From: Nannocystis sp.
Lineage (GTDB): Bacteria > Myxococcota_A > Polyangia > Nannocystales > Nannocystaceae
Length of the DNA stretch: 64,000 nucleotides
Direction of reading: 5' to 3'
Assembly (NCBI GenBank): GCA_016712315.1
Contig: JADJRG010000022.1
Coordinates: 930,522 to 994,521, forward strand
The notes beneath the pieces are model-generated. The model had not been told where the DNA came from. It made no database searches and saw nothing but the letters and a program-made list of their open reading frames with translations. The translations under genes were made by a program, and so were the position numbers. This document shows, one piece after another, positions 89-58,992 of the stretch (positions within the stretch are counted from its first letter, which is position 1; every line of letters starts with the position of its first letter).

Positions 89-922
89 CTAACTGGCCAC
101 CAGCACCGTACCGCGGCTGCCCGGCGCCCTCGCCTCGGCCGCCAGCGCCCCCTCGCTCACCCCGAGGATGTGCACCGCCCCGATCCCGAGCCCGAGCAGC
201 GCCAGCGCCTCTTCCACCTTGGGGATCATACCGCCCGCGATCACCCCATCCGCGATCGCCGCCCGCGCCTCATCGGCCGCCAGCCGCGGGATCCTCGACC
301 CCGGATCTGCACGATCACGCAGCACCCCCGGCACGTTCGTAAACGCGAACAAGTGCTCCGCCCGCAGCGCCGCCGCCAGCGCTGAAGCCACCGTGTCCGC
401 GTTGATGTTGTAGACCGCGCAGCTCGGCCCCTGCGTCGCCGGCTCGATCCCCAGCGACGAGATCACCGGCGTGAACCCGCCCGCCCACAGGTGCTCGATC
501 AAGGCCGTACGGATCTCGACGATCTCACCGACCAACCCGAAGTCCACCGGCTCCGCGCCGCCGCCGCTCACCACCATCGGCGCTCGCCTGCGCGCGCACA
601 CCAGCCCCGCGGACACCCCGCACAAACCAACCGCCGGCAGCCCTGCGGCCATCGCCGCCGCCACCAAGTCGACGCTCACCTCACCCGCGAGCGCCTGCTT
701 CATCACCTGCAAGGTCGCCTCGTCGGTGATCCGACGACCACCGACCTTCCGCGTCGGCAACCCCAGCCGCTCCTGCAGCGCGCTCGCTTGCGGCCCGCCG
801 CCGTGGCAGATCGCCACCTTCCAGCCGCCGCGCACCAGCGCCGCCGCGTCGCGCAGCAGCGCGAACAGCCCCGCCGGCTCGTTCACCAGCTCCCCGCCGA
901 TCTTCAAGACCGCGACCGTCAC
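89..922 (-). CDS. argB: N-acetylglutamate kinase
   Basis: Amino-acid kinase family motifs VLKIGGELV, ICHGGGPQ and RITD. Probable GTG start at 920-922 forms a GTGA overlap with the argC stop. The first ~60 codons of the listed ORF (89..1102) overlap argC and look non-coding. Confidence 0.85.
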   Translation of the reverse strand: MTVAVLKIGGELVNEPAGLFALLRDAAALVRGGWKVAICHGGGPQASALQERLGLPTRKVGGRRITDEATLQVMKQALAGEVSVDLVAAAMAAGLPAVGLCGVSAGLVCARRRAPMVVSGGGAEPVDFGLVGEIVEIRTALIEHLWAGGFTPVISSLGIEPATQGPSCAVYNINADTVASALAAALRAEHLFAFTNVPGVLRDRADPGSRIPRLAADEARAAIADGVIAGGMIPKVEEALALLGLGIGAVHILGVSEGALAAEARAPGSRGTVLVAS

Positions 923-1998
923 GGCCAGATCCCCGCCGTCTCGAGCCCCGCGACCTCTGGCAGCCCCAGCGCCAGGTTCATCGACTGCACCGCCTGCCCC
1001 GCCCCACCTTTGATCAGGTTGTCGATCGCCGAGGTCAACAGCAGCTGCCGCAGCCCGCTCACCGCGTCGACCGCCCCCAACGTCCACGAGAGGTCCGCCC
1101 ACATCGTCCCCTTCACCGCCAGCACCTCCGCCTGCGCCTTCGCCGACCCGCCCAACACCCGCACCAGCGGCGCGTCCTTATAAAAATCGCCATAGAGCCC
1201 AGCGATCGCGGCCCCATCGATCGCGGCGGGCACTTGCACGAACGAGTTGGCCAAGATCCCCCGCACCAGCGGCGCCGAGACTGGCACAAAGGACAGGCTA
1301 AACCGCGACGCCACGCCGCCGGCGCGGCAGGCGTCCGCGAGCGTCTGCTCGATCTCCGGCACGTGCTGGTGCGCCAGCGCCTTGTAGATCTTCAGGTTGT
1401 TCGCGCGCGTCGGGTGGTGCGTGCCCTCGCTCGCGTACGCACCTGAGCCCGACGAGCCGGTCGCCGCCACCGTATGGATCGGCCCAGACAGCAGCCCGGC
1501 CTTCGCCAGCGGCAGCAGCCCCAGCGCGATCGCGGTCGCGAAGCACCCAGGTGACGCGATCCGCCGGCTCTGCCGGATCGCCTCGCGGTGCAGCTCGGGC
1601 AGCCCGTAGGTCCACGCGCCCAAATGCTCTGGGAACGGGTGAGCGCCCCCGTAGTAGCGCGCGTACGCCTCTGCGTCGCGCAGGCGAAAGTCCCCCGACA
1701 GATCGATGATCCGCGGCGACGCGCCGACCAGCGCCCCAGCCATCGTCGCGCTCACCTTGTGCGGCAGCGCCAAGAACACCACGTCCATGCCCGAGGCCGC
1801 CGCCTCCGCCGGCATCTCCTCGAACACCAACCCCGTGCGCCCTAGCGTCCGGTGCACCGCCTCAAGCGGCTCACCCACGCGATCGATGCTGGTCACCCGC
1901 GCGAGCTCGACGTTGGGGTGGTTGATCAGCAAACGGATCAGCTCAGCGCCGCCATACCCGGTCCCGCCGATCACCGCCGCGCGGGCAAGAGCTGACAT
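919..1998 (-). CDS. argC: N-acetyl-gamma-glutamyl-phosphate reductase
   Basis: N-terminal Rossmann motif AVIGGTGYGG, active-site region SPGCFATA, and a C-terminal semialdehyde dehydrogenase domain. ATG at 1996-1998 gives MSALARAAVIGG. Confidence 0.9.
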   Translation of the reverse strand: MSALARAAVIGGTGYGGAELIRLLINHPNVELARVTSIDRVGEPLEAVHRTLGRTGLVFEEMPAEAAASGMDVVFLALPHKVSATMAGALVGASPRIIDLSGDFRLRDAEAYARYYGGAHPFPEHLGAWTYGLPELHREAIRQSRRIASPGCFATAIALGLLPLAKAGLLSGPIHTVAATGSSGSGAYASEGTHHPTRANNLKIYKALAHQHVPEIEQTLADACRAGGVASRFSLSFVPVSAPLVRGILANSFVQVPAAIDGAAIAGLYGDFYKDAPLVRVLGGSAKAQAEVLAVKGTMWADLSWTLGAVDAVSGLRQLLLTSAIDNLIKGGAGQAVQSMNLALGLPEVAGLETAGIWP

Positions 1999-2098: not shown

Positions 2099-2206
2099 GG
2101 CGGATCCGCGAGCGGCCGGCCTCGTCTCGGACATTTGCGTCATAGAACCCCGTTGCCAGCCACCACCACGACCCAAAAACAAAACAATTACGAGGAAATG
2201 CCACCA

Positions 2207-2222
2207 TGGCACCGTCAATGCA
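2207..2222 (+). promoter_or_regulatory. Sigma-54 (-24/-12) promoter-like element TGGCAC-cgtca-aTGCa
   Basis: GG at 2208-2209 and GC at 2220-2221 have the canonical 12-nt spacing. There is one mismatch to TGGCAC-N5-TTGCW. No plus-strand ORF follows. A sigma-54 activator gene lies at 7263-8957. Confidence 0.3.
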
Positions 2223-2232
2223 GAGTGAGTGA

Positions 2233-2515
2233 CCGTCGACAACGACACCTACTCTCCCTTGTGTCGGCCCGTTCGCGCCGCGCTGTAACGACCTGCTTGG
2301 CTTGCTCCTACCCCTTGGCTTTCTACGAACCTGCCTTGGTCTCGCTTGATTCCCTACCTTAGACTGCCTCTTCGTTTATCCGTAAGCGCCCTTAGAACCT
2401 TAAAAAATACGCTTAGAACGCGCGCAGCATGCGGATCACGCATGAAGGTGCCGAGAACTTAGAACTGGGGGGGGGCCCAGGACGGCTTGGTCCGCTGTCC
2501 TGGGTTCTCGTTTTG
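2233..2515 (+). ncRNA. Candidate ~280-nt non-coding RNA between the sigma-54-like promoter and the intrinsic terminator. Contains three CTTAGAAC copies (2391, 2412, 2458) plus a CTTAGAC variant (2359).
   Basis: The region is 520 bp with no ORF and lower GC, bracketed by promoter-like and terminator elements on the same strand. Purely structural inference, no homology evidence. Confidence 0.2.
2476..2515 (+). terminator. Rho-independent terminator: stem CCCAGGAC / GTCCTGGG (8 bp, 13-nt loop) followed by TTCTCGTTTTGGTTG
   Basis: A perfect GC-rich hairpin is followed at once by a T-rich tract on the plus strand. On the minus strand it is followed by C9, so it is a poor terminator there, though it could still stop the 2523-3455 gene. 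Confidence 0.5.
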
Positions 2516-2522
2516 GTTGATC

Positions 2523-3455
2523 TCACCAGTGCAAGTGGTCTTCCGGCTCGGCCACCCGGTCGGCGAGCCGCCACACCTGCTCTGGCCCCACGCGCCCCTC
2601 GAGCGCCATCTCCAGCTCAGCCCGCCCTGGGTGCTGAAGCGGCAGCGGCAGCCCCCTGGCATCGATGACATAGTGCCCCCGGGTCGCGCACTCTGCGCCA
2701 AACGGCATCGCGTGCACCCCGGCCGCCGCTCCTTCCGCGCGCAAACGCCCCAGATCTGCCCGGATCGGCCCGCCGCAGCGCGGACACACCACCGCGCCGC
2801 TCTCCCCCCGCCACAGCGTCAACAGCGGCTCAGCCCGCGATCCACGGCTGCTACCGCGCGCCGCCGACCACCACGTCGGATCAAAAGCAAACACCCCCGG
2901 CAGCGTCTCCGGCACGATCCCTTGCTCCCGCAGCCAGCGCCCCGCCAGGTAGTACGCGGGCGCCTGCCGCTCCCCCTGCTCACGCGCCTCCACGAAGAGC
3001 GGCGGCCGATCGAAGTGCGGGTCAAGCCCCCACGCCCCCGCCAGCGAGCGCCGCGCCTCCCCCCGCAAGCTCCACATCGTATGGCCCACGACCACCCTGG
3101 TCACCCGGTCAACCAGCACCCAGCACACGTTCGCCAGCTTCGCCCACGGATCCAGCGCGAGATCGCACACCTTCAGCTTGTCACAGGTGATCGCCCCGCC
3201 GCGCCGCCACACGCTCACCAGCTTGATCTCGATCCGATCCTCCCAATCACGGCTCGCCGCGCCGTCATGCGGCTCCAGCCCCAAGTGCCACTGCAGCGCG
3301 TTCCCGTGGCGCCCACGCGAGCGCGAAGCAGTCACCAGCGCCGCGGCTGGGCCCAGCGGCAGGCCCAACGCCGCCGCAGCGAGCGCCTCCAAGTGCGCGC
3401 AGCGCAGCACGACAGCGTCCGCCTCGGGCGGCGGATGACGGAGCGGCAAGCGCAT
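2523..3455 (-). CDS. Hypothetical protein (310 aa) with a zinc-ribbon-like CPRCGGPI motif
   Basis: Normal amino-acid composition from MRLPLRHPPPEAD onward. The upstream part of the listed ORF is the reverse translation of the (AEEK)n tandem repeat and is not coding. The overlapping plus-strand ORF 2487..3659 is R/P/Q-rich junk. Confidence 0.5.
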   Translation of the reverse strand: MRLPLRHPPPEADAVVLRCAHLEALAAAALGLPLGPAAALVTASRSRGRHGNALQWHLGLEPHDGAASRDWEDRIEIKLVSVWRRGGAITCDKLKVCDLALDPWAKLANVCWVLVDRVTRVVVGHTMWSLRGEARRSLAGAWGLDPHFDRPPLFVEAREQGERQAPAYYLAGRWLREQGIVPETLPGVFAFDPTWWSAARGSSRGSRAEPLLTLWRGESGAVVCPRCGGPIRADLGRLRAEGAAAGVHAMPFGAECATRGHYVIDARGLPLPLQHPGRAELEMALEGRVGPEQVWRLADRVAEPEDHLHW

Positions 3456-3471
3456 ACGACGGCTCCGCCGC

Positions 3472-3705
3472 CTACTCGGACTTCTTCTCGCCCTCGGCGG
3501 CCTCGCCCGCCTCCCCCGCTTTCTCCTCGGCCCTCTCCTCGGCCTTCTCCTCGGCCTTCTCCTCGGCCTTCTCCTCGGCCTTCTCCTCGGCCTTCTCCTC
3601 GGCCTTCTCCTCGGTCTTCTCCTCCTTCTTCTTACCTGCCTGCTCCGCACAACCACTGAAGCCAGCCACCGCGACGCTCAAGAGAACAACATGAAAGATC
3701 TGCAT
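3472..3705 (-). CDS. Small secreted lipoprotein (77 aa) with an (AEEK)n low-complexity repeat
   Basis: Signal peptide MQIFHVVLLSVAVAGFSGC with a lipobox Cys, then KKKEEKTEEK(AEEK)7. Encoded by the 12-nt tandem repeat. Last gene of the regulatory cassette. Confidence 0.5.
   Translation of the reverse strand: MQIFHVVLLSVAVAGFSGCAEQAGKKKEEKTEEKAEEKAEEKAEEKAEEKAEEKAEERAEEKAGEAGEAAEGEKKSE
3517..3624. repeat. 12-nt tandem repeat GGCCTTCTCCTC: 6 perfect copies plus ~3 degenerate copies. In-frame, encoding (AEEK)n on the minus strand.
   Basis: Directly visible in the sequence. Confidence 0.9.
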
Positions 3706-3768
3706 CGTGCACCTCCGCGATCACCAAGCGACCGCGCCGAGCGACGCTAACGCAGATCGCCCTCAAGG

Positions 3769-4278
3769 TCACCTCTCTGCCGCGCCCTCATCCCCTGCCT
3801 TCGCCTGCTCCGCCCCGATCGCCCGCAGGATCGCCGCCCGGATCGTCCTCGCGTCCGCGTAGTCCGGGCAGTACGAGAGACCCGGGTCCTTCGCCGTGAG
3901 CGCCCGGAAGCGCCGCTCCTCCGCGCTGAAGTCGTAAGACAAGATCACCGGCCCCGAATAACCCGCGTCGCGCAGCGCCCGCAGGATGAACAGCCCCTGG
4001 TTGTCCTGCAAGAACGCCCGCGCCCGCGCCACGTCGCCGTTGAAGCGCGCCGTCAAGGCCACCAAGTCGCCGAGCAGCTCATCGATCGGCGTGCGATCGA
4101 AGCGCATATCCAGGTACACGACGTCAGGCGCGCCGCGCAGCGCCAGCTCGCACGCCGCGCCGCCGCTCTGCGCCTGCACGTAGCGGATCCCTGCCGCCAC
4201 GAACGTGGTGAAGTTGGTCATGTACTCGTTCCCGTCCTCGACCACGAGGACCTCGATCTCAGGCGCGCTCACGCTCAC
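3769..4278 (-). CDS. Single-domain response-regulator receiver protein
   Basis: VLVVEDGNEY acidic pocket and a VVYLDMRF phospho-acceptor Asp region. ATGA overlap with the upstream histidine kinase stop (4275-4278). Confidence 0.6.
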   Translation of the reverse strand: MSVSAPEIEVLVVEDGNEYMTNFTTFVAAGIRYVQAQSGGAACELALRGAPDVVYLDMRFDRTPIDELLGDLVALTARFNGDVARARAFLQDNQGLFILRALRDAGYSGPVILSYDFSAEERRFRALTAKDPGLSYCPDYADARTIRAAILRAIGAEQAKAGDEGAAER

Positions 4279-7262
4279 GGCTCATCCTCCACGGTGAAGA
4301 AGCGGAGGACCACGGCCTTCTGCCAGCCCGGCTCGGGCTCGACCGCGATCGACCCATCGTAGCGCGACAGGAGGTCGACGGTGATCCCCATCCCGCGCTC
4401 GACGTAGCGCCCGCGCAGCATCTCGTTCGAGAGCTGCTCGCTCGATCGGTCCTTGATCCGGATCGCCAGCGTCGTCAGCCCGGTGATCTCATCTGTCTCT
4501 GCGACTAGATCGACCCCCAACTGCGCCGGGGACGGCCCGTAGAGGACGCTAGAGCCGAGCGAGTTTCGGAGCACGTTGGCCAGGATATCCTCGAGATCCG
4601 TCCGAAAGACCCGGATCTTCGCGCCCGCCCCCGCCACCTCGAGCTCCGCGATCGCCACCCGCCCGAACTGCGACTCCGCACAGACGAGCCCGAACACCTC
4701 ACGGATCGCCGTAGGCGTCACCTCGACGACGCACAGCGAGTGGATAAGCGAGCTCAAGCGCTCAAACGCCCGGCGCCCCAGCTCATGCCCGCTGCGCTTC
4801 AGCTTCGCCGCCAGATCGAGCTTCTTCGAGCGGAACTCCGCGCGCCCCGGCTCGAGCGTGTCCAGCTCCCGCAGCTCCTCGAACGCGCGGATCATCGGGC
4901 TGAAGATCGGGTCCTTGCGATAGAGGTTCAGCGTCACCCCGTACGTACGCGCGACCCCCTGCAGCTCATCCACGTAGCCGAGGAAGCGCCCGTAGATCCC
5001 CTGGTCCCGCGAAGACAGCCGTCGATCCGCCGGCGCCTCGCGTCGCCGTCGCCGCAGCCGCTCCCGCCCTCGCTCGCCGAAGAGCCGCCGCGCCACGATC
5101 GCCGCCCGAACCTCCGCGTCTGGCTCATCAAACTCGAGCGCGCGCCCCACATCTGTCAGGAAGGCGGTGTTGTGCTTCAGGATCTCATGCCGGATCAGGC
5201 TCAAGATCCGCGCCACCTCAGGAAAGCTCTTCGGCGCCCGCGCCAAGAGCTGCGCCAACGAAGCGCCCCTGAGCCGCCGATAGATCATCACCAGCGGCGC
5301 CACCAACATCAGCACGAGCAGCCCGCCACCGACCGCGTAGACCCGGCGAAAGGCCGCGTCGAAGTCCTCGCGCAGCAGCCGCGCGCGGTCCCAGTTGAGG
5401 TCATACGCGCCCGCCTCCGCTAGATAGAGATCGAGCTGCTCCGACGCCTCGACCCAAGCGTGCTCGCGCCACAGCAGCCCAGCCAGGCGAAACCGCGCGT
5501 TATACGACCCGAGCTCCGCCGCGCGTCGCAGGTGCACCACCGCCTCTGTCGGCTTCTCGATCTCGATCAAGATCCCGAGCCGCTCATGCACATCCACCTG
5601 ATCTGGGTCCATCTGCAAGCTGCGCTCCCAGAACCCCCGCGCGTCCCCAGGTCGCCCGTCCGCGTAGGCGACCTTCGCCAGCTCATTAAACACCTGCGGC
5701 TCATCGCCGTACTTGTCCGCCGCCGCTCTTAGGATCCGCTCGGCCTGCTTCCAGTCCTCGTCGTCCTCGTAGCGCAGGTACGCCTCGTTGATCATCCGCT
5801 GCAGCCCCGGATCCAAGCGCCGCAGATCGCTGGGCGGCTCGATCTCCGCCAGCGGCTCGTCCCCGCGCAGCTCACGGCTCAGGTTGTCGAGGGCGACCCG
5901 CGCCCGCTCCGCGTCGACGTCGTCCGTGCTCACCGACTCGAGGAACTGGCTGAAGTGCCGGCGCGCCCGCTCGCGATCGGAGCGCGCGTACAGCTCGCCG
6001 AGCAAGAAGTGCAGGTGCCGCATATCTGGCCGCAGCACCAGCGCACGCTCCAAGTGCTCGATCGCCGCCGCGTCCTCCGCCCCCGCGAATTCCTTCTTGT
6101 AGAGCAGCCCCAAGGCGATATGCGCCTCGTAGTCGTAACGGTCCATCCGGACCGCCAGCTTCAGCTCCTCCACCGCCTTCGCGTAGCGGCCGGTGCGCGC
6201 GTGCACGAGGCCCAGCGCGTAGTGGGCCTTCGGGAACCACGGCGCGACCTCGATCGCCCGCTGCAGCGCCGCCTCGGCCAGCGCCAGATCGCCCCGCCGC
6301 ATCGCCGCGTCCGCCGCCCGATAGCTCGCCTCAGCCTCTGCGTTCGGCCGACCGCCTTGCTCCCGCTCCAAGCGCGCCAGCTCGACCTCGAGCTGCATCT
6401 CCGCCACCTGCGAATTCGCGAGCGCGGCGTCGGGCGTGCCGGTGTAGAGCGCCGCCAGCGATCGATACGCGTCGATCGCCGCCTCCAGCTCGCCGCGCTG
6501 CCGGAGCAGATCGCCTTGCATCCGCAGCGCCTCGGCGATCGGCGGCCGCCCGAGCAGCGCGCACTCCTCTCGATAACGCGCGAGCTCCTGCGAGGCGGCC
6601 TCACGCAGCGCGCTCGCCTCACGCGGCAGCGTCGCCGCCTCCGCGTCCTCCGCGTACAGCCTCGCGATCATCACCCGGATCTCCGGAGGGCGCGAAGGCG
6701 CCCGCGGATCCTCGTCTGCGAGCTCCAGCGCCAGCTCCAAGCGCTCCCGCCGCATCGTCGCGCCGCAGCGCGCGAGCCACTCCAAGAACACCGCGCGCTC
6801 CTCGAGCCACAGCCCGCGCGGGTCGTAGAGGCGAAGCAGCCGCAGATCCTCGATCGCCTTGCGGGGGCACTGGTCCGCGCGCGCCCGCTTGTGGCGCAAG
6901 TAAGCGCGCCCTCGCAGCACCACCGGGTCACCCGGCTGCAGCTTCAGCGCCGCGGTGTACTCACGGATCCCATCATCGAGCTTCCCCTCGCGTTCGAAGC
7001 GCTGCGCCCGGCTCAAGTGAAGATCGAACTCGAGCTGCCGCTGCTCCAGCGTCGGCTCCGCGCCCCCGTCGCCCGCGCCGGTCGAGCCCTCACCCACCTC
7101 CGGCGGCGGCGGCAATAACGGCCCCGAAGCGCCCGAACGCTCGTCGATGGGCGGCCCCGCGCGCGCCAGCCCCACCGCGAGCGCCAGCGCCGCGCTCCCG
7201 GCCGCAGCCAGCGCTGGCGAGCGTGACCGCCACCGACGCCTCGATCGCCCCGTGCTCCGCAC
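4275..7262 (-). CDS. Sensor histidine kinase with a large periplasmic TPR-repeat domain
   Basis: N-terminal signal/anchor, about 600 aa of TPR-like repeats, one TM helix (GGGLLVLMLVAPLVMIY), H-box SLIRHEILKHNTAF, and a C-terminal HATPase_c region (LRNSLGSS ... RGMGITV). Confidence 0.75.
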   Translation of the reverse strand: MRSTGRSRRRWRSRSPALAAAGSAALALAVGLARAGPPIDERSGASGPLLPPPPEVGEGSTGAGDGGAEPTLEQRQLEFDLHLSRAQRFEREGKLDDGIREYTAALKLQPGDPVVLRGRAYLRHKRARADQCPRKAIEDLRLLRLYDPRGLWLEERAVFLEWLARCGATMRRERLELALELADEDPRAPSRPPEIRVMIARLYAEDAEAATLPREASALREAASQELARYREECALLGRPPIAEALRMQGDLLRQRGELEAAIDAYRSLAALYTGTPDAALANSQVAEMQLEVELARLEREQGGRPNAEAEASYRAADAAMRRGDLALAEAALQRAIEVAPWFPKAHYALGLVHARTGRYAKAVEELKLAVRMDRYDYEAHIALGLLYKKEFAGAEDAAAIEHLERALVLRPDMRHLHFLLGELYARSDRERARRHFSQFLESVSTDDVDAERARVALDNLSRELRGDEPLAEIEPPSDLRRLDPGLQRMINEAYLRYEDDEDWKQAERILRAAADKYGDEPQVFNELAKVAYADGRPGDARGFWERSLQMDPDQVDVHERLGILIEIEKPTEAVVHLRRAAELGSYNARFRLAGLLWREHAWVEASEQLDLYLAEAGAYDLNWDRARLLREDFDAAFRRVYAVGGGLLVLMLVAPLVMIYRRLRGASLAQLLARAPKSFPEVARILSLIRHEILKHNTAFLTDVGRALEFDEPDAEVRAAIVARRLFGERGRERLRRRRREAPADRRLSSRDQGIYGRFLGYVDELQGVARTYGVTLNLYRKDPIFSPMIRAFEELRELDTLEPGRAEFRSKKLDLAAKLKRSGHELGRRAFERLSSLIHSLCVVEVTPTAIREVFGLVCAESQFGRVAIAELEVAGAGAKIRVFRTDLEDILANVLRNSLGSSVLYGPSPAQLGVDLVAETDEITGLTTLAIRIKDRSSEQLSNEMLRGRYVERGMGITVDLLSRYDGSIAVEPEPGWQKAVVLRFFTVEDEP

Positions 7263-8957
7263 TCACTCCCCTCGCTTGCGCTTCAGCGATCGCAGCTTGA
7301 TCCCGAGCTGGTTCATCCGGAGCTGGATCTTGCGCCCCGCCTCCCCGTCATCCAACAAGATCCGCCCCATCTCCCCCAGATCGCCCTCACACTGGTCAAA
7401 GAGCTGCTCCAGGTACTGCCGCTCGACCGCGCACGACACAGAGTTCAATGACTCCGCCGCGATCAGCCGCACGCTCATCCGCCGCCCGGGACCCTCGCTC
7501 ACCGCCGCCGCCGCCTCCTCACGGCGTGCCAGCGTCATCGGCCGCAGCAGATCGCTCACTGTCTTCGCCGGGATCGGCACCACCTCAGGGCGGCTCGCCA
7601 GCGCCGGATCACCCGGCTCGATCTGCGGCGCGCGCTCGACCAGCTCGACCAGCGTGAACGTCACCAAATTTGAGAGGGTCATCTCGAAGTGGCGAAAATT
7701 CCCCGGCCACTCGAAGCCGCGCATCAGCTTGAGCGAGCTCGGGTGCAGCAGGAAGTGGATCCGCGAGGGATCCGGCCGGGTCGGCACCACCGAGCCTACG
7801 CTCACCGCCAGCGCCCCCTCTTGCGTCGGCAGCGAGAGCCCGCGCTGGCTCGCGTACTGCAGCACCAGATCGCGGTTGTACGCCTCCGAGGCGACCCGTC
7901 GCAGGAAGAACGACAGCAGCTCATAGAAGTCATCGCGCCGCTCGGCCAGGCCCGGCAGCGTCACCGCGGTCGCCGGGTTCAGCCGCATAAACAAGTCCTC
8001 GCGGAAGCGGCCGCTGCGGACCATCGCCGCCAGGTCTTCGTTCGTCGCGACCACCAGCTTGATGTCCGCGACCCGCTCCTGCACCGATCCCACGGGCCGA
8101 TACGTGCCCTCCTGCAGGACCAGCAGCAGCGACTTCTGCAGCTCGAGGCTGAGGTTCCCGATCTCATCGAGGAACAGCGTCCCGCCGTGCGCCCGCGCGA
8201 GCACCCCATCCCGGCTCGCGATCGCCCCCGTATACGCCCCCTTCGTCACCCCGAACAGGTGCGCCGCCATCAGGTCGCTCGGGATCGTCGACAGATCGAC
8301 CGCCACGAACGCCCCGCTGCGCCCCGAGTGCGGGTGGATGAATTCGCGGCACAGGAGGCTCTTCCCGGTCCCCGTAGCGCCCTGGATGATGATCGGCAGC
8401 CGCCCGCGCGCCAAGATCCCTAGCCGCCGCCGCAGGCTCAACATCGCCGGCGTCTTCCCCCAAAAGAACGGCTCGTCAGGCGTCTCGGCCGGCTGCTGCT
8501 GCCGCGCCAAGATCCCCTCGATCTGCAGCTTCAGCGAGCGCGCGTCGAGGTAGTCATCCGCCAGCAGGTACGTGTACTCCTCCGCGTGCAGCCGCTCCGC
8601 GTCGACCCCCAGCGGCAGGTCATCACGCGACGTCATCACGATCAGCGGCAGGTCTGGATAGCTCTCTCGCAGCCGATCGAGGATCTGCAGCCCTTGTGTG
8701 CGCCGAAGCCGCTCGATCACCCGTGAGCGCTCGCCCTTCGCCAGCAGCGGCCCCTTATCGAAGGGCAGCAGCTCCTCATCGGCGATGTTGAAGTGCACGT
8801 CCAGCAGCACCAGATCGATCTTGCCCGCGCGCCGCCGCAGCGCCTCTGCGGCCTCGCGATAGCAGCGCGCCACCGGCAGCAGCTCGTACTCCGGCATATA
8901 GCGGCGCACCAGCTCGTGGTAGCTGTCCTCGTCGTCGATGATCAGGATCGAAGACAT
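7263..8957 (-). CDS. Sigma-54-dependent transcriptional activator (NtrC family: receiver + AAA+ + HTH)
   Basis: Receiver MSSILIIDDED...LDVHF. Walker A GATGTGKS, GAYTGA (GAFTGA variant), ESELFGH-like region, and a C-terminal HTH. ATG at 8955-8957. Abuts the histidine kinase gene. Confidence 0.85.
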   Translation of the reverse strand: MSSILIIDDEDSYHELVRRYMPEYELLPVARCYREAAEALRRRAGKIDLVLLDVHFNIADEELLPFDKGPLLAKGERSRVIERLRRTQGLQILDRLRESYPDLPLIVMTSRDDLPLGVDAERLHAEEYTYLLADDYLDARSLKLQIEGILARQQQPAETPDEPFFWGKTPAMLSLRRRLGILARGRLPIIIQGATGTGKSLLCREFIHPHSGRSGAFVAVDLSTIPSDLMAAHLFGVTKGAYTGAIASRDGVLARAHGGTLFLDEIGNLSLELQKSLLLVLQEGTYRPVGSVQERVADIKLVVATNEDLAAMVRSGRFREDLFMRLNPATAVTLPGLAERRDDFYELLSFFLRRVASEAYNRDLVLQYASQRGLSLPTQEGALAVSVGSVVPTRPDPSRIHFLLHPSSLKLMRGFEWPGNFRHFEMTLSNLVTFTLVELVERAPQIEPGDPALASRPEVVPIPAKTVSDLLRPMTLARREEAAAAVSEGPGRRMSVRLIAAESLNSVSCAVERQYLEQLFDQCEGDLGEMGRILLDDGEAGRKIQLRMNQLGIKLRSLKRKRGE

Positions 8958-8958
8958 G

Positions 8959-9387
8959 TCACGCGCCTGCGCCGCGGAGCCGCCGGTGCAACTGTAACAG
9001 AGCCGCGCGGATCGTCGCCTGCGCCGCTCGTAGCCCGCTCCGCAGCTCCGCGAGCGCCGCCCGATCGCCCGCCCGCAGCGGCGCCTCAGCCGCGCGCAGC
9101 GTCGCCACCGCGGCTGCCACATCCTCTAATTCAGGCGCGGGGAGCGGCGCACCAAGCTCGGCGCTGAGGCGCGCCCAGACCTCCCAAGCCGCCTCTGGAG
9201 CCCCGCTCAGGCCTGCGCGCGTGCGCAACAGATCCGCCTGCAGCGACTCTACCAGCGGCGCCTCCACCGGCCCTGACCACGCCGACTCGTCGAGGTTCAC
9301 GCAGCGCCACGACGAGTACTTACCCAGGTCGTGCTTCAGCGCCGCGACCGCCTCGATCAGCGCCTCGCGATCGATAGGATTCGCCAT
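8959..9387 (-). CDS. Hypothetical protein (142 aa)
   Basis: Coding-like composition. Its stop abuts the activator start (operon position). No recognisable motif. Confidence 0.4.
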   Translation of the reverse strand: MANPIDREALIEAVAALKHDLGKYSSWRCVNLDESAWSGPVEAPLVESLQADLLRTRAGLSGAPEAAWEVWARLSAELGAPLPAPELEDVAAAVATLRAAEAPLRAGDRAALAELRSGLRAAQATIRAALLQLHRRLRGAGA

Positions 9388-10719: not shown

Positions 10720-12048
10720 ATGACCCTCCGCGACCGGGACCTCCAGGTGCTCTGGCACCCGGCGAGCCACTTCGACGACCACCGCGACCTGCCCCCGATC
10801 CCGATCGCGCGGGCCCGCGGCTGCTGGCTCTACGATCAGGAGGATCGGCCGATCCTCGACGCCATCGCCTCCTGGTGGACCTCCATCCACGGCCACTGCC
10901 ACCCCGAGATCGCCGCGGCGATCGCCGAACAAGCCGCCCGCCTTGACCACGTCTTGCTCGCTGGCTTCACCCACGAGCCCGCGGTCGCGCTCGCCGAGGC
11001 GCTCCTCGCCGCCGCGCCGCCCGGCATGGGCCGCGTCTTTTACGCCGACTGCGGCGCCGCGGCCGTCGAGGTCGCCCTCAAGCTCAGCTTTCAGGCCCGC
11101 CTGCTCGCGGGCGAGCCCCAGCGCGGCCGCTTCGCCACCCTCGAGAACAGCTACCACGGCGAGACCCTCGGCGCGCTCGCGCTCTGCGGCAATGACAGCT
11201 ACCGCGCCACCTTCGCGCCTTTGCTGATGCCCGTCCTCGAGCTCCCGGCCCCCGAGCTCCCCGACCATGACCTCGATGATCTCCACGGCGACGCAGGCGC
11301 CGACGCCCCCGCCGCCGATCGAGCCGTCGAGCTCTTAGAGCAGCACGCCCCCGAGCTCTCCGCGCTGATCCTCGAGCCCTTGGTTCAATGTGCCGGCCGC
11401 ATGCGCATGACCGGCGTTGGGTACTACCGTCGCGTCGTCCAGGCCGCCCAGCGCCTCGGGATCCACGTCATCGCCGATGAGATCGCCGTCGGCTTCGGCC
11501 GCACCGGTCGGCTCTTCGCCAGCGCTTGGGCCGGCGTCAGCCCTGATCTCCTGTGCCTCAGCAAGGGCCTCTCTGGCGGCGTCTTACCGCTCGCCGCGGT
11601 GCTCGTGCGCGCCGGCCTCGACGACCTCTTCCGCGGCGGTCCCGAGCGATCATTCCTCCACAGCCACACCTTCGCTGGCAACCCGATCGCCTGCGCCGCT
11701 GGCCTCGCCAGCCTCCGCCTCTACTTCGCAGACGACCTCCCCGCCCGCCTACCAACGCGCGCGGAGGCCCTCCGCCGGCGCCGTCTCCGGGTCGCCGCCG
11801 AGTCGCGCGCGATCGCCCATCACCGGCAAGCCGGCATGATCGCCGCCTTCACCGTACGCGCGCCCGACGGCGGGCCCTTGCCCGCGCGCATCGGCCTCCG
11901 CCTCCGCGCGGCCGCGCTCGCCCGCGGCGTCCTCCTCCGGCCGCTCCATGACATAGTTTATTGGATGCCGCCGCTGACGATCTCCGACGAAGAGCTCGAC
12001 CTCCTCGCGGATCGCACCCTCGAGGCCCTGCGCGAGGTGCTCGGGTGA
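10720..12048 (+). CDS. bioA: Adenosylmethionine-8-amino-7-oxononanoate aminotransferase
   Basis: LWHPASHF, SWWTSIHGHCHPEI, YHGETLGAL, ADEIAVGFGRTGRLFA, LCLSKGLSGG (PLP lysine) and YWMPPL are collinear with BioA. Confidence 0.85.
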   Translation: MTLRDRDLQVLWHPASHFDDHRDLPPIPIARARGCWLYDQEDRPILDAIASWWTSIHGHCHPEIAAAIAEQAARLDHVLLAGFTHEPAVALAEALLAAAPPGMGRVFYADCGAAAVEVALKLSFQARLLAGEPQRGRFATLENSYHGETLGALALCGNDSYRATFAPLLMPVLELPAPELPDHDLDDLHGDAGADAPAADRAVELLEQHAPELSALILEPLVQCAGRMRMTGVGYYRRVVQAAQRLGIHVIADEIAVGFGRTGRLFASAWAGVSPDLLCLSKGLSGGVLPLAAVLVRAGLDDLFRGGPERSFLHSHTFAGNPIACAAGLASLRLYFADDLPARLPTRAEALRRRRLRVAAESRAIAHHRQAGMIAAFTVRAPDGGPLPARIGLRLRAAALARGVLLRPLHDIVYWMPPLTISDEELDLLADRTLEALREVLG

Positions 12049-38773: not shown

Positions 38774-39832
38774 TCACACAGGCCGCGGATCGGGCAGCCC
38801 TGGCGGCACCCGCTCCACCCGCAGCGCCCCGCGCAGGTAGCGGCGCCCCTCAGCAGCTCGCTCGCCCAGCGGCGGCGCGCCGACCCACAGTTGGCGAGAA
38901 GGCGCCCATCCCAGCCCCTCCAAGGCGTTGTTTAAGATCTGCTCTTCAGGACATGCATACAAGACCAGCATCGGGCCGACGATCGGCGGCTCGGCCGCGA
39001 GAGGCCGCGTCGACAGCCCCGACCTGCGCAGCAGCGCCGGCGCCAAGAAGATCGGCCCCTCTCCCCCACGATGCAGCCGCCCGCCCTCACACAGCACCTC
39101 CACCTCGGGCAGCGCCGCCCAACGATCGAGCGCCGCGAAGAACGCCGCCGCGACGCTCGGTGAGCTCGGCCCCGAGAACGCCTCCGGATCCTCGGCCGAG
39201 CCGATCCGCGCGCCGACCCACAGCCGCTGCAAGTGACGCTCGAGCCGCGTCATCGACCCACACACCAGCGCCCTGCCGATCCTCCGCGGATCGCACCCAC
39301 CCCGCCGCAGCGACGCCCGCGCCAGCACATACGCGGCCAGCTCGCGATCGCCGTCGGCGGCGACCACTGCGACCCGCTCGAGCGCCGGAGCGACCCCAGC
39401 CTCCGGCCAAGCGCGCGCGGCGACGTCGTTCGCTCCCAGCCCCTCGACCGTCAACGCCCCCTCCAAGCGCGGAGCGAAGGACGCGAGCAGCTCCAGGCCC
39501 GCCGTGCACGCCGCCGCCTCCGCGCCCACGTGCACCCGACGACCCTGCCGCAGCCGCCGCCACACCGCCGCCAAACACTCCAGCGGCTGCCCTGCCCGCT
39601 CGATCACCCGCGCGGGCTCGCCCCCATAAGGCGGTCGAAACCGCTCCTCACGCAGCGCCCACAGCTCGCGCTGCGCCCGGCCGATCACCCGCTGGCGATC
39701 CCACGCGACCAGCCCATGAGACCCCGCGAGCGCCTCACCGATCGCGTCCGAGCGCAGCGCGAGCTGCTCCAGCAGCGGCCCTTGCCACGCGCGCGCGGCG
39801 GCGGCGAGGCGCTCGGGTCTCATCGCGCTCAA
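38774..39832 (-). CDS. Hypothetical protein with weak ALDH-superfamily-like fold signals, lacking the catalytic Cys/Glu motifs
   Basis: Segments such as IVGPMLVLYACPEEQILNNALEGLGWAPSRQLW recall the ALDH C-terminal region. 4-bp overlap with the PNP gene. Confidence 0.4.
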   Translation of the reverse strand: MSAMRPERLAAAARAWQGPLLEQLALRSDAIGEALAGSHGLVAWDRQRVIGRAQRELWALREERFRPPYGGEPARVIERAGQPLECLAAVWRRLRQGRRVHVGAEAAACTAGLELLASFAPRLEGALTVEGLGANDVAARAWPEAGVAPALERVAVVAADGDRELAAYVLARASLRRGGCDPRRIGRALVCGSMTRLERHLQRLWVGARIGSAEDPEAFSGPSSPSVAAAFFAALDRWAALPEVEVLCEGGRLHRGGEGPIFLAPALLRRSGLSTRPLAAEPPIVGPMLVLYACPEEQILNNALEGLGWAPSRQLWVGAPPLGERAAEGRRYLRGALRVERVPPGLPDPRPV

Positions 39833-49254: not shown

Positions 49255-49302
49255 GGCGGGCTCCTCCGGCTCAGGCTTACGCGAGGATTAAAGGGGAAGG
49301 AG

Positions 49303-49374
49303 TTGGGGCGGTAGGATTCGAACCTACGGTAGGCGGAACCAAAAACCGCTGGCTTACCACTTGCCGACGCCCCA
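49303..49374 (-). tRNA. tRNA-Gln (anticodon UUG)
   Basis: Minus-strand read: UGGGGCG-UC-GGCA-AGUGGUAA-GCCA-GCGGU-UUUUGGU-UCCGC-CUACC-GUAGG-UUCGAAU-CCUAC-CGCCCCA-A. Architecture parallels E. coli tRNA-Gln (U1-A72, T-loop GGTTCGAATCC). Anticodon loop UU-UUG-GU, with a 31:39 U.U pair. CCA not encoded. Confidence 0.8.
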
Positions 49375-58152: not shown

Positions 58153-58992
58153 TTAGGCCGCCAGCTCCAACCACGCGCAGAGACGCTCCGCGTAGCGAGC
58201 AGGCACGTCGATCACCGGGCGTGGCACCTCTGGCGCCGACGCCCCGTGAAAGTCAGAGCCGCCCGTGACCACCAGGTCCAGGTCCTCGGCCATCCGCAGC
58301 CACGTCTGCTGCTCCCGCGCGCCGTAGCGGCCATACAGCGCCTCGATCCCGTCGAGCCCCGCCGCCCTATGGCGCCGATAGAACTCGCCGACGATCGCGA
58401 ACGAGCGCAGCGTGTGCGGGTGCGCGATCGACAGCTTCGCCCCACACGCCCGCCCGAGCGCGACGCCTTCCGCGAGGCCGAGGCGCCCCACTGGCACGTC
58501 CGCCGGCCCACCGTCCTTCAGAAAACGATCGAACGCCTCACGCAGGCTCGTCACCACCCGCGCCGCCAGCAGCGCCCGCGCCACATCCGGTCGCCCTGGC
58601 GTGTGCCCCGCCGAATCACGCAGGATCGCCTCCGTATCGAGCTTCACCCCCAGCTTGGCGAGGCGCCCCACGATCGCCCCGATCCGCTCGCGCCGGCTCG
58701 CCATCACCTCGACCAAGCGCGCCCGCAGCGCCCGCTCGCCCTCGCCCTCCTGCACCCCATAGATCAGGAGGTGGATCGTACGATCGCCCTCGCGGCAGCT
58801 CAGCTCGAGCCCACGAAGCACCGCGCACCCCGTGCCTGCGAGCGCGGCGGCGGCGGCGTCGTGCCCATCCAAGCTGTCGTGGTCGGTGAGGCAGAAGACC
58901 CGCGCGCCGTGGCGCGCCGCCTCGGTCGCCACTGCCGTAGGGGACAAGCTCCCGTCGGAACAGGTCGAGTGGCAGTGCAGCTCGAGCAACAT
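58153..58992 (-). CDS. PHP-domain metal-dependent phosphoesterase (TrpH/YciV-like)
   Basis: MLLELHCHSTCSDGS ... LTDHD. PHP His/Asp motifs. Confidence 0.75.
   Translation of the reverse strand: MLLELHCHSTCSDGSLSPTAVATEAARHGARVFCLTDHDSLDGHDAAAAALAGTGCAVLRGLELSCREGDRTIHLLIYGVQEGEGERALRARLVEVMASRRERIGAIVGRLAKLGVKLDTEAILRDSAGHTPGRPDVARALLAARVVTSLREAFDRFLKDGGPADVPVGRLGLAEGVALGRACGAKLSIAHPHTLRSFAIVGEFYRRHRAAGLDGIEALYGRYGAREQQTWLRMAEDLDLVVTGGSDFHGASAPEVPRPVIDVPARYAERLCAWLELAA

Follow-up and report, generated by a model that had tools for sequence, protein, structure and literature searches.

The 64-kilobase (kb) stretch analysed here (hereafter the window; 64,000 nucleotides (nt) of contig JADJRG010000022.1 from a Nannocystis sp. 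assembly) contains near its start a 524-base-pair (bp) intergenic gap between argC and a gene for a protein of 310 amino acids (aa), both on the minus strand. Comparison with related loci supports well a gene for a noncoding RNA of about 284 nt in this gap upstream of argC, conserved across Nannocystaceae. Based on sequence conservation, the segment 2207–2518 on the plus strand is very probably a real noncoding RNA gene of the sigma-54 type. The features of the locus are as follows.

919–1998, minus strand: argC (Pfam E-values of 1e-29 to 5e-37).
2085–2097, no strand: palindrome 1, GACATCCATGTCA, a putative binding site for an enhancer-binding protein; GACA and TGTC do not vary over the 11 lineages.
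2130–2144, no strand: palindrome 2, GACATTTGCGTCATA, likewise a putative site of this kind; here GACA and GTCATA do not vary.
2178–2206, plus strand: position of the IHF-like box (consensus WATCAANNNNTTR), adjoining the -24 box; degenerate in the window.
2207–2222, plus strand: -24/-12 promoter element, TGGCAC-cgtca-aTGCA, with GG and GC 10 nt apart.
2233–2516, plus strand: predicted primary transcript of ~284 nt; +1 is assumed to lie 12 nt after the C of the -12 GC, and each end may shift by a few nt.
2296–2465, plus strand: pyrimidine-rich repeat body, with CUU[AG][AG] motifs starting at 2296, 2314, 2335, 2345, 2358, 2391, 2399, 2412, and 2458.
2428–2444, plus strand: small GC-rich hairpin, CAUGCG-GAUCA-CGCAUG, at the equivalent place in most homologues.
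2447–2452, plus strand: GGUGC(C) block, reading GGUCGGUGCUG in most lineages; all 11 sequences share GGTGC.
2471–2518, plus strand: intrinsic terminator, with a 16-bp stem (2471–2486 with 2494–2509), the loop UUGGUCC (2487–2493), and a U-rich tail.
2523–3455, minus strand: gene for the 310-aa protein, convergent to the candidate RNA.
7263–8957, minus strand: gene for an NtrC-family sigma-54 activator (Sigma54_activat E-value 3.6e-51, plus a receiver domain).

The original prediction had placed a sigma-54-dependent small RNA (sRNA) in this gap, and this reading is supported: the promoter/terminator pair is conserved in 11 of the 11 related lineages retrieved. The parts from which it was assembled are also in place. 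The -24/-12 element with correct GG-GC spacing lies at 2207–2222 on the plus strand, the plus-strand terminator at 2471–2509 (16 pairs and a 7-nt loop), the GCATGCG...CGCATG hairpin at 2428–2444, and the sigma-54 activator gene 5 kb off at 7263–8957. The interval is comparatively AT-rich as claimed, with a GC content of 50–62% against 66–79% in the flanking genes.

Homologous loci were collected from contigs encoding homologues of the 310-aa protein, which gave 11 distinct lineages with protein identities of 54–97%. One more locus, L090, came from a metagenome scan with the terminator-loop pattern GGACGGCTTGGTCNGCTGTCC. L090 is a real homologue; L088, L089, and L091 are chance matches inside coding sequence. 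The gap comparisons below cover the 11 distinct lineages, and the promoter count additionally includes the near-identical L081 (12 gaps). L096, L097, and L098 are loci of 20 kb each. In a species-level genome collection, the closest ArgC is 73% identical and belongs to an uncultured Nannocystaceae metagenome-assembled genome (MAG), here L001. The family of the 310-aa protein includes 261 proteins, and all its named members are from Nannocystaceae or Myxococcales (Nannocystis, Enhygromyxa, Paraliomyxa, and MAGs). The layout is constant in all lineages: the 310-aa gene is followed by a non-coding gap of 0.5–0.9 kb and then by an arg gene divergent from the RNA. This arg gene is argC, or argB in Enhygromyxa-like lineages. 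The predicted RNAs are 266–410 nt long across homologues.

The distribution of the element follows the family. A profile of its 3′ module finds exactly one copy in each of 17 Nannocystaceae sequences (the window and 16 loci), no second copy in the window, and no copy in the argC loci of other families (L002–L080). The argC-based genome scan returned a single Nannocystaceae locus (L001), and the 79 others (Polyangiaceae, Anaeromyxobacter, Acidobacteriota, and others) are without the element.

The pattern [TC]GGC[ACT]C-N6-TGC[AT] is matched exactly once per gap in 12 of 12 gaps. In the 11 lineages the matches share one aligned position, where GGC, C, and TGC are invariant against a variable 5-nt spacer and variable flanks, the signature expected from a functional -24/-12 element. 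Compared with the consensus TGGCAC-N5-TTGCW, GG and GC are correctly spaced (10 nt) in the 11 lineages. A scan of positions 1900–2700 for sigma-70 promoters found no site. Elsewhere in the window, TGGCNC-N6-TGCW is matched at 7846–7861 (+), 39030–39045 (-), and 58568–58583 (-), the first of them antisense within the activator gene. The total of four compares with 1.15 expected, and none of 100 shuffles reaches four.

Upstream of the promoter, the two palindromes follow the consensus sequences GACAT-N3-(T/C)GTCA and GACATCNNNGTCATA and are spaced by 43–45 bp in every lineage. The distances from palindrome 2 to the -24 box are 77, 77, 77, 87, 88, 88, 88, 88, 89, 90, and 100 bp across lineages. 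They change in steps of ~11 bp (77, 88, 100), about one helical turn. The distance from palindrome 2 to the arg start codon is patternless, from 59 to 241 bp. The helical phasing toward the -24 box indicates that the palindromes are tied to the sigma-54 promoter and not to the arg promoter. Such phasing is what looping between an enhancer-bound AAA+ activator of the NtrC family and the closed complex requires. In the 64-kb window the palindromes are found only at this gap (palindrome 2 as a single exact match in the whole window), and in the other loci, including the 20-kb L096–L098, only at the equivalent site of the gap. As inverted repeats at helically phased distances from the promoter, they are putative upstream activator sites, which are expected ~80–150 bp from a promoter on a fixed helical face. 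An extra partial half-site (TGACATCCATGCG; 2066–2078 in the window), which may be a third activator site, is found farther upstream than palindrome 1 in the lineages of the window, L084, and L086.

The arg gene has its own conserved sequence in the gap. GGCTTACTTACCACC at 2040–2053, which is GGCTTGTACCACC or TGTAGCAC in relatives, is kept ~40 bp upstream of the argC start and probably represents the minus-strand -10 region of argC. This presumed -10 region has palindrome 1 immediately upstream, so that the activator could also influence arg transcription.

In 9 of the 11 lineages, an IHF-like box with 7–9 matches out of nine (TTTCAAnnnnTTG) has its first base exactly 19 nt ahead of the T in TGGC. 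The match in L001, TATCAACGAGTTG, is perfect. In L097 the box is displaced by 12 nt, alongside a 12-nt insertion. We regard this box as suggestive only, because it is degenerate in the window lineage.

At the other end of the predicted RNA, the terminator scan reports the stem at 2471–2509 followed by the tail GTTTTGGTT, that is, a 16-bp stem and GUUUUGGUU on the plus strand, as in an intrinsic terminator. Over 11 sequences and 16 pairs, 92.5% of the cells form a standard pair, and compensatory double changes are seen in 8 of the 16 pairs; the observed values are reached by none of 500 shuffles. When the partners are slid by 1–3 columns as a control, the pairing is 37–56%. At three pairs, G·U is the commonest combination (6–8 of the 11 sequences), where the opposite strand would have A·C mismatches. 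The G·U pairs and the covariation indicate that the helix is selected in the plus-strand RNA. The loop sequence UUGGUC is invariant in the 11 sequences, and the G7–9 run is paired with the UUCUC located after the core stem.

The conservation extends upstream of the terminator. The last ~100 nt of the RNA align well across all lineages, including the place of the small hairpin, the stems of which differ by lineage (CAUGCGG/CCGCAUG, GCGC/GCGC, and GCGCGC/GCGCGC). The 3′ 75 nt are 84–95% identical to the window in L084, L086, L092, and L093, and 67–73% identical in five more distant lineages. The third codon positions of the neighbouring gene are saturated, with identities of 42–55% in all nine lineages. 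Such conservation beside saturated third codon positions points to strong purifying selection on the non-coding sequence.

The body of the RNA is of a different nature. It is 65–71% pyrimidine and contains only 8–18% A. Its fold is as stable as that of shuffled sequence (z = -0.05), which indicates that the body is largely unstructured. No open reading frame (ORF) is conserved in frame, length, or sequence across homologues. Several homologues can form a 5′ hairpin followed by CCUUAC, which was considered as a further element but has no firm support from the alignment or the fold z-scores.

What is kept in the body is a short motif, CUU[AG][AG], which is present 5–11 times per RNA in sense and 0–1 times in antisense, with irregular spacing, over the 11 RNAs. 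In the window RNA, a tenth copy at 2486 extends into the terminator loop, and the variants include CUUGGCU, CUUGGUC, CUUGAU, and CUUAGAAC. Enhygromyxa-like lineages prefer CUUGAC and CCUGAC. Compared with the expectation from dinucleotide shuffles of the 11 RNAs, the enriched words are TGGCTT (25 observed against 1.95 expected, z 16.5), TTGGCTT (14 against 0.70, z 16.4), GCTTG (33 against 7.8, z 9.4), CTTGG (23 against 4.6, z 9.2), and CTTGA (31 against 9.9, z 7.5). The motif is thus enriched beyond composition and is kept when its number and spacing vary. In L098, a perfect tandem array of 4.2 copies of a 19-nt unit, which contains the motif (sense CCUUUCUUGAUCCUGACUU), is located at 11065–11143 within the RNA body. 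This array looks like a recent amplification of the motif and illustrates how the copy number changes.

The three octamers stressed in the original prediction are only partly borne out. The octamer CTTAGAAC is indeed present at 2391, 2412, and 2458, with no other copies in 64 kb (0.22 expected; none of 100 shuffles reaches three), and the CTTAGAC variant is present at 2358. However, the copy adjoining the G run is the sole conserved one of the three. The other two are lineage-specific versions of the CUU-purine-purine repeat.

Known RNA families do not account for the element. With Rfam models at E ≤ 10, positions 1800–2800 give only chance matches (Prion_pknot, H19, and a snoRNA), located outside or across the promoter. 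At the gathering score, the window and four homologous loci give tRNA-Gln only. This tRNA-Gln (UUG), at 49302–49374 (-), is the sole Rfam/ARAGORN match in the window, and the tRNA/tmRNA scan finds nothing within the argC upstream gap. The possibility that the region is a known untranslated region (UTR) of argC was also checked. The RNA is divergent from argC, and therefore it is not an argC UTR.

The gene convergent to the RNA encodes a protein without a match in Pfam and NCBIfam searches. Its AlphaFold model (pLDDT, the predicted local distance difference test score, of 93.8) has MutH (2aor_B, E-value 6e-5) as the sole significant fold match in the PDB. The protein contains an invariant D-x-E...E-x-K signature and a C-terminal CxxC...H...C cluster. 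From the model and these residues, its probable identity is a Nannocystaceae-specific, uncharacterised nuclease of the PD-(D/E)XK type that carries a zinc ribbon. It was considered as an RNA-binding partner and rejected, since the fold is that of a MutH-like nuclease and of no known RNA-binding protein; no link to the RNA is drawn. The next ORF, 3472–3705 (-), is small and lipoprotein-like, with a weak match to the Lpp/OprI alanine zipper. It contains a 12-nt tandem repeat of 8.7 copies (TTCTCCTCGGCC) at 3521–3624, encoding an (AEEK)n-type repeat.

The 310-aa gene belongs to an operon-like cluster, which occupies 2523–9387 (-) of the window, 3635–10933 of L096, 3626–10933 of L097, and 3830–10933 of L098. 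It includes a ~135-aa ORF, the NtrC-type activator, a ~1000-aa TPR protein, a ~160-aa receiver-like protein, a 45–85-aa ORF, and the MutH-like 310-aa gene. A 4HBT thioesterase gene is in the cluster of the relatives and absent from that of the window. The order is syntenic in these four sequences, and the RNA gene is 5–7 kb from the activator gene. The latter has generic NtrC-family matches, none of them above an equivalog cutoff. Judged by this linkage, the NtrC-type activator of the conserved operon most likely drives the RNA promoter.

These observations can be combined into one scheme. Sigma-54 RNA polymerase would bind TGGCAC-N5-ATGCA, and oligomers of the NtrC-type activator on the two phased palindromes, ~80–125 bp upstream, would drive open-complex formation, probably assisted by DNA bending at the IHF-like box. 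Transcription from near 2233 to the covarying 16-bp terminator would yield the ~284-nt RNA. Its purine-poor and mostly single-stranded body would carry about ten CUU-purine-purine motifs, followed by the 3′ module presenting GGUGC and the loop UUGGUC. As a multivalent decoy acting in trans, the RNA may then titrate a factor recognizing the motif on single-stranded RNA; this factor would be a protein or, less likely, another RNA. The motif persists through changes in copy number, spacing, and length, and the terminator loop invariably holds one copy; this is the pattern of titrating RNAs. We consider a sigma-54-driven Nannocystaceae noncoding RNA gene acting as a decoy the best explanation as a whole, and a moderately probable one. 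Taken by itself, the decoy function is a tentative assignment to which we give slightly less than an even chance.

Several points weigh against this explanation. Transcription, sigma-54 dependence, the identity of the activator, and decoy function are all inferred from sequence. The -24/-12 match is within chance for the window alone (one match with at most one mismatch against 1.07 expected in 64 kb); thus the window alone could not decide, and the significance of the match stems only from its conservation in relatives. The IHF-like box of the window matches at only seven of nine positions and, at -29, is unusually close to -24. The activator is connected to the RNA by linkage alone, and their co-occurrence is partly circular because the RNA homologues were found via synteny with the same cluster. 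The motif fits neither the CsrA motif (GGA) nor the A-rich Hfq/Crc motif. A C-rich, unstructured, and untranslated RNA would also be a good substrate for Rho. Finally, the 3′ module is more conserved in sequence than the repeats, which fits a base-pairing seed equally well.

The last point leads to an explanation that keeps the sigma-54-driven noncoding RNA but makes it a base-pairing sRNA, in which GGUCGGUGCUG, CUUAGAAC, UUGGUC, or the CU-rich repeats would be seeds for mRNAs and the terminator with its U tail would be a chaperone-binding module. Base-pairing sRNAs usually bind their chaperone through a terminator hairpin and U tail, and the 3′ module is the most conserved part of this RNA. 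There are precedents: the sigma-54-dependent Qrr RNAs base-pair with their targets, and mRNAs are the presumed targets of Pxr, whose actual binding targets are not known (PMC5568312, PMC11928866). On the other hand, body length and repeat number change freely, even by tandem duplication, with the motif kept, which is typical of titrating RNAs and not of seeds. Duplexes predicted with the neighbouring arg leader score between z = -3.8 and z = +2.9, and no site recurs consistently. None of the motifs is an anti-Shine-Dalgarno sequence, and the enriched k-mers include no CUCCU-type words. We regard base pairing as rather unlikely, but as the main rival of the decoy. Much less can be said for a DNA-level control region of the divergent arg operon, with the palindromes as arginine or nitrogen operators in an ArgR-like 5+4+5 layout, the TTGGCTT/CTTGAC words as protein-binding DNA sites, and an incidental -24/-12 match. 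In every locus the arg gene that diverges from the RNA is argC or argB, and the geometry of the palindromes, TGACA-N4-TGTCA, is apparently that of ARG boxes. Yet the palindromes are phased to the -24 box and not to the arg start, the repeats are strand-specific and lie between a promoter and a terminator of like orientation, and the covariation of the terminator helix, G·U pairs included, is at the RNA level. Such a control region is very unlikely.

The two remaining explanations are both extremely improbable. The original prediction had itself offered one of them, in which the hairpin only terminates the convergent gene at 2523–3455 and the promoter match is due to chance. Besides the chance level of that match, the closeness of the window hairpin to the stop codon of the minus-strand gene (~5–10 nt) agrees with it. 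This closeness is not general: in L084, L086, L092, and L093 the hairpin is ~90–270 bp from the stop codon and yet fixed within the 3′ module. Read on the minus strand, the hairpin leads into C9-AGUUCUAAG instead of a U run, and its G·U pairs become A·C. The C run indicates that the hairpin is a poor terminator for the convergent gene. Since the -24/-12 element, the palindromes, and their phasing are also kept in the 11 lineages, the comparative data effectively refute this explanation, and it was rejected. The other explanation is a small protein encoded in the interval. Most homologues have ORFs of 25–90 codons, owing to the scarcity of stop codons in a sequence so poor in purines; none of them is conserved, and the length differences among homologues ignore codon structure.

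It can be further speculated that the RNA is the titrating arm of a new post-transcriptional system of Nannocystaceae, with a new single-stranded-RNA-binding regulator recognizing CUUGGCU/UUGGUC-type motifs and unrelated in motif to CsrA or Hfq/Crc. An orphan NtrC-type activator would switch on the RNA and so have this regulator sequestered, which might link a nitrogen or arginine signal with the global control of translation. This is a possible but rather doubtful extension. Such a regulator could conceivably be a helical-repeat protein, for example the ~1000-aa TPR protein of the linked operon. The group is known for large genomes and natural products, and finding the partner might bring to light a new global regulator that binds RNA. 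The locus is well defined and experimentally tractable, with its putative enhancer sites, possible bend, promoter, and candidate activator, and the repeat architecture predicts titration. The RNA gene is present in three cultured genera, Nannocystis, Enhygromyxa, and Paraliomyxa. The alignment of the 3′ module and terminator can seed a covariance model for the new RNA family.

The RNA is a new family of a known kind of RNA. In the literature searched, Pxr is the only myxobacterial sRNA and is restricted to Cystobacterineae; a search combining Nannocystis with noncoding RNA gave no paper. Pxr measures 108 nt, has three stem-loops, and follows directly after nla19; it originated in Cystobacterineae, to which it is confined (PMC5568312). 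Its gene, known from Myxococcus xanthus and other members of that group, resembles the present one in several respects: it encodes a regulatory RNA of myxobacteria, has a predicted sigma-54 promoter plus enhancer site, is close to the gene of a sigma-54-dependent response regulator, and has a Rho-independent terminator at its end (PMC5568312). Unlike Pxr, the RNA described here is 266–410 nt long, has an unstructured repeat body, is convergent to a different operon, and belongs to Nannocystaceae. Pxr, cited as precedent in the original prediction, is therefore not kin. Membership was rejected on size, structure, neighbourhood, and taxon, and no Rfam match was seen at E ≤ 10, where the presence of a Pxr model in Rfam was not checked.

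Among sigma-54-dependent sRNAs are also Qrr1–5 (activated by LuxO), GlmY/GlmZ (GlrR plus IHF), and NrsZ (NtrC). They share with the present locus a -24/-12 element and upstream sites of the kind bound by an NtrC-family activator; at glmY/glmZ, IHF also takes part. There is no homology, and these RNAs are shorter, structured, and without a CU-rich repeat body. LuxO/Qrr is described as a sigma-54 sRNA system (PMC4878744).

As in CsrB/CsrC/RsmX-Y-Z, repeat number and RNA length vary with the motif kept, and a hairpin loop displays one motif copy, which in the present RNA is the UUGGUC of the terminator. Those RNAs have sigma-70 promoters under GacA/UvrY. A CsrA-type motif was rejected for the present RNA: A(N)GGA loop motifs are absent from the sense strand, except for a single ANGGA over the 11 RNAs (none in ten, one in L098), and the unstructured body has no chain of hairpins. 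The near absence of ANGGA and the 8–18% A of the body place the RNA outside both the CsrB/RsmZ and the CrcZ families; only the logic is similar.

The CrcZ promoter of Pseudomonas is RpoN-dependent and activated by CbrB, an NtrC-family regulator encoded nearby. The present RNA gene differs in being convergent to the activator operon, not downstream of it. The motif of CrcZ is A-rich (AANAANAA), whereas the motif here is the pyrimidine-rich CUU-purine-purine, and there is no relationship in sequence or in Rfam. In CrcZ, several copies of a short single-stranded motif titrate an RNA-binding protein, and the RNA sequesters Hfq (PMC4063720, PMC5113210). With a length of ~400 nt, an RpoN promoter, an NtrC-family regulator, and a repeated single-stranded motif, CrcZ/CrcY is the best functional analogy for the predicted RNA of Nannocystaceae.

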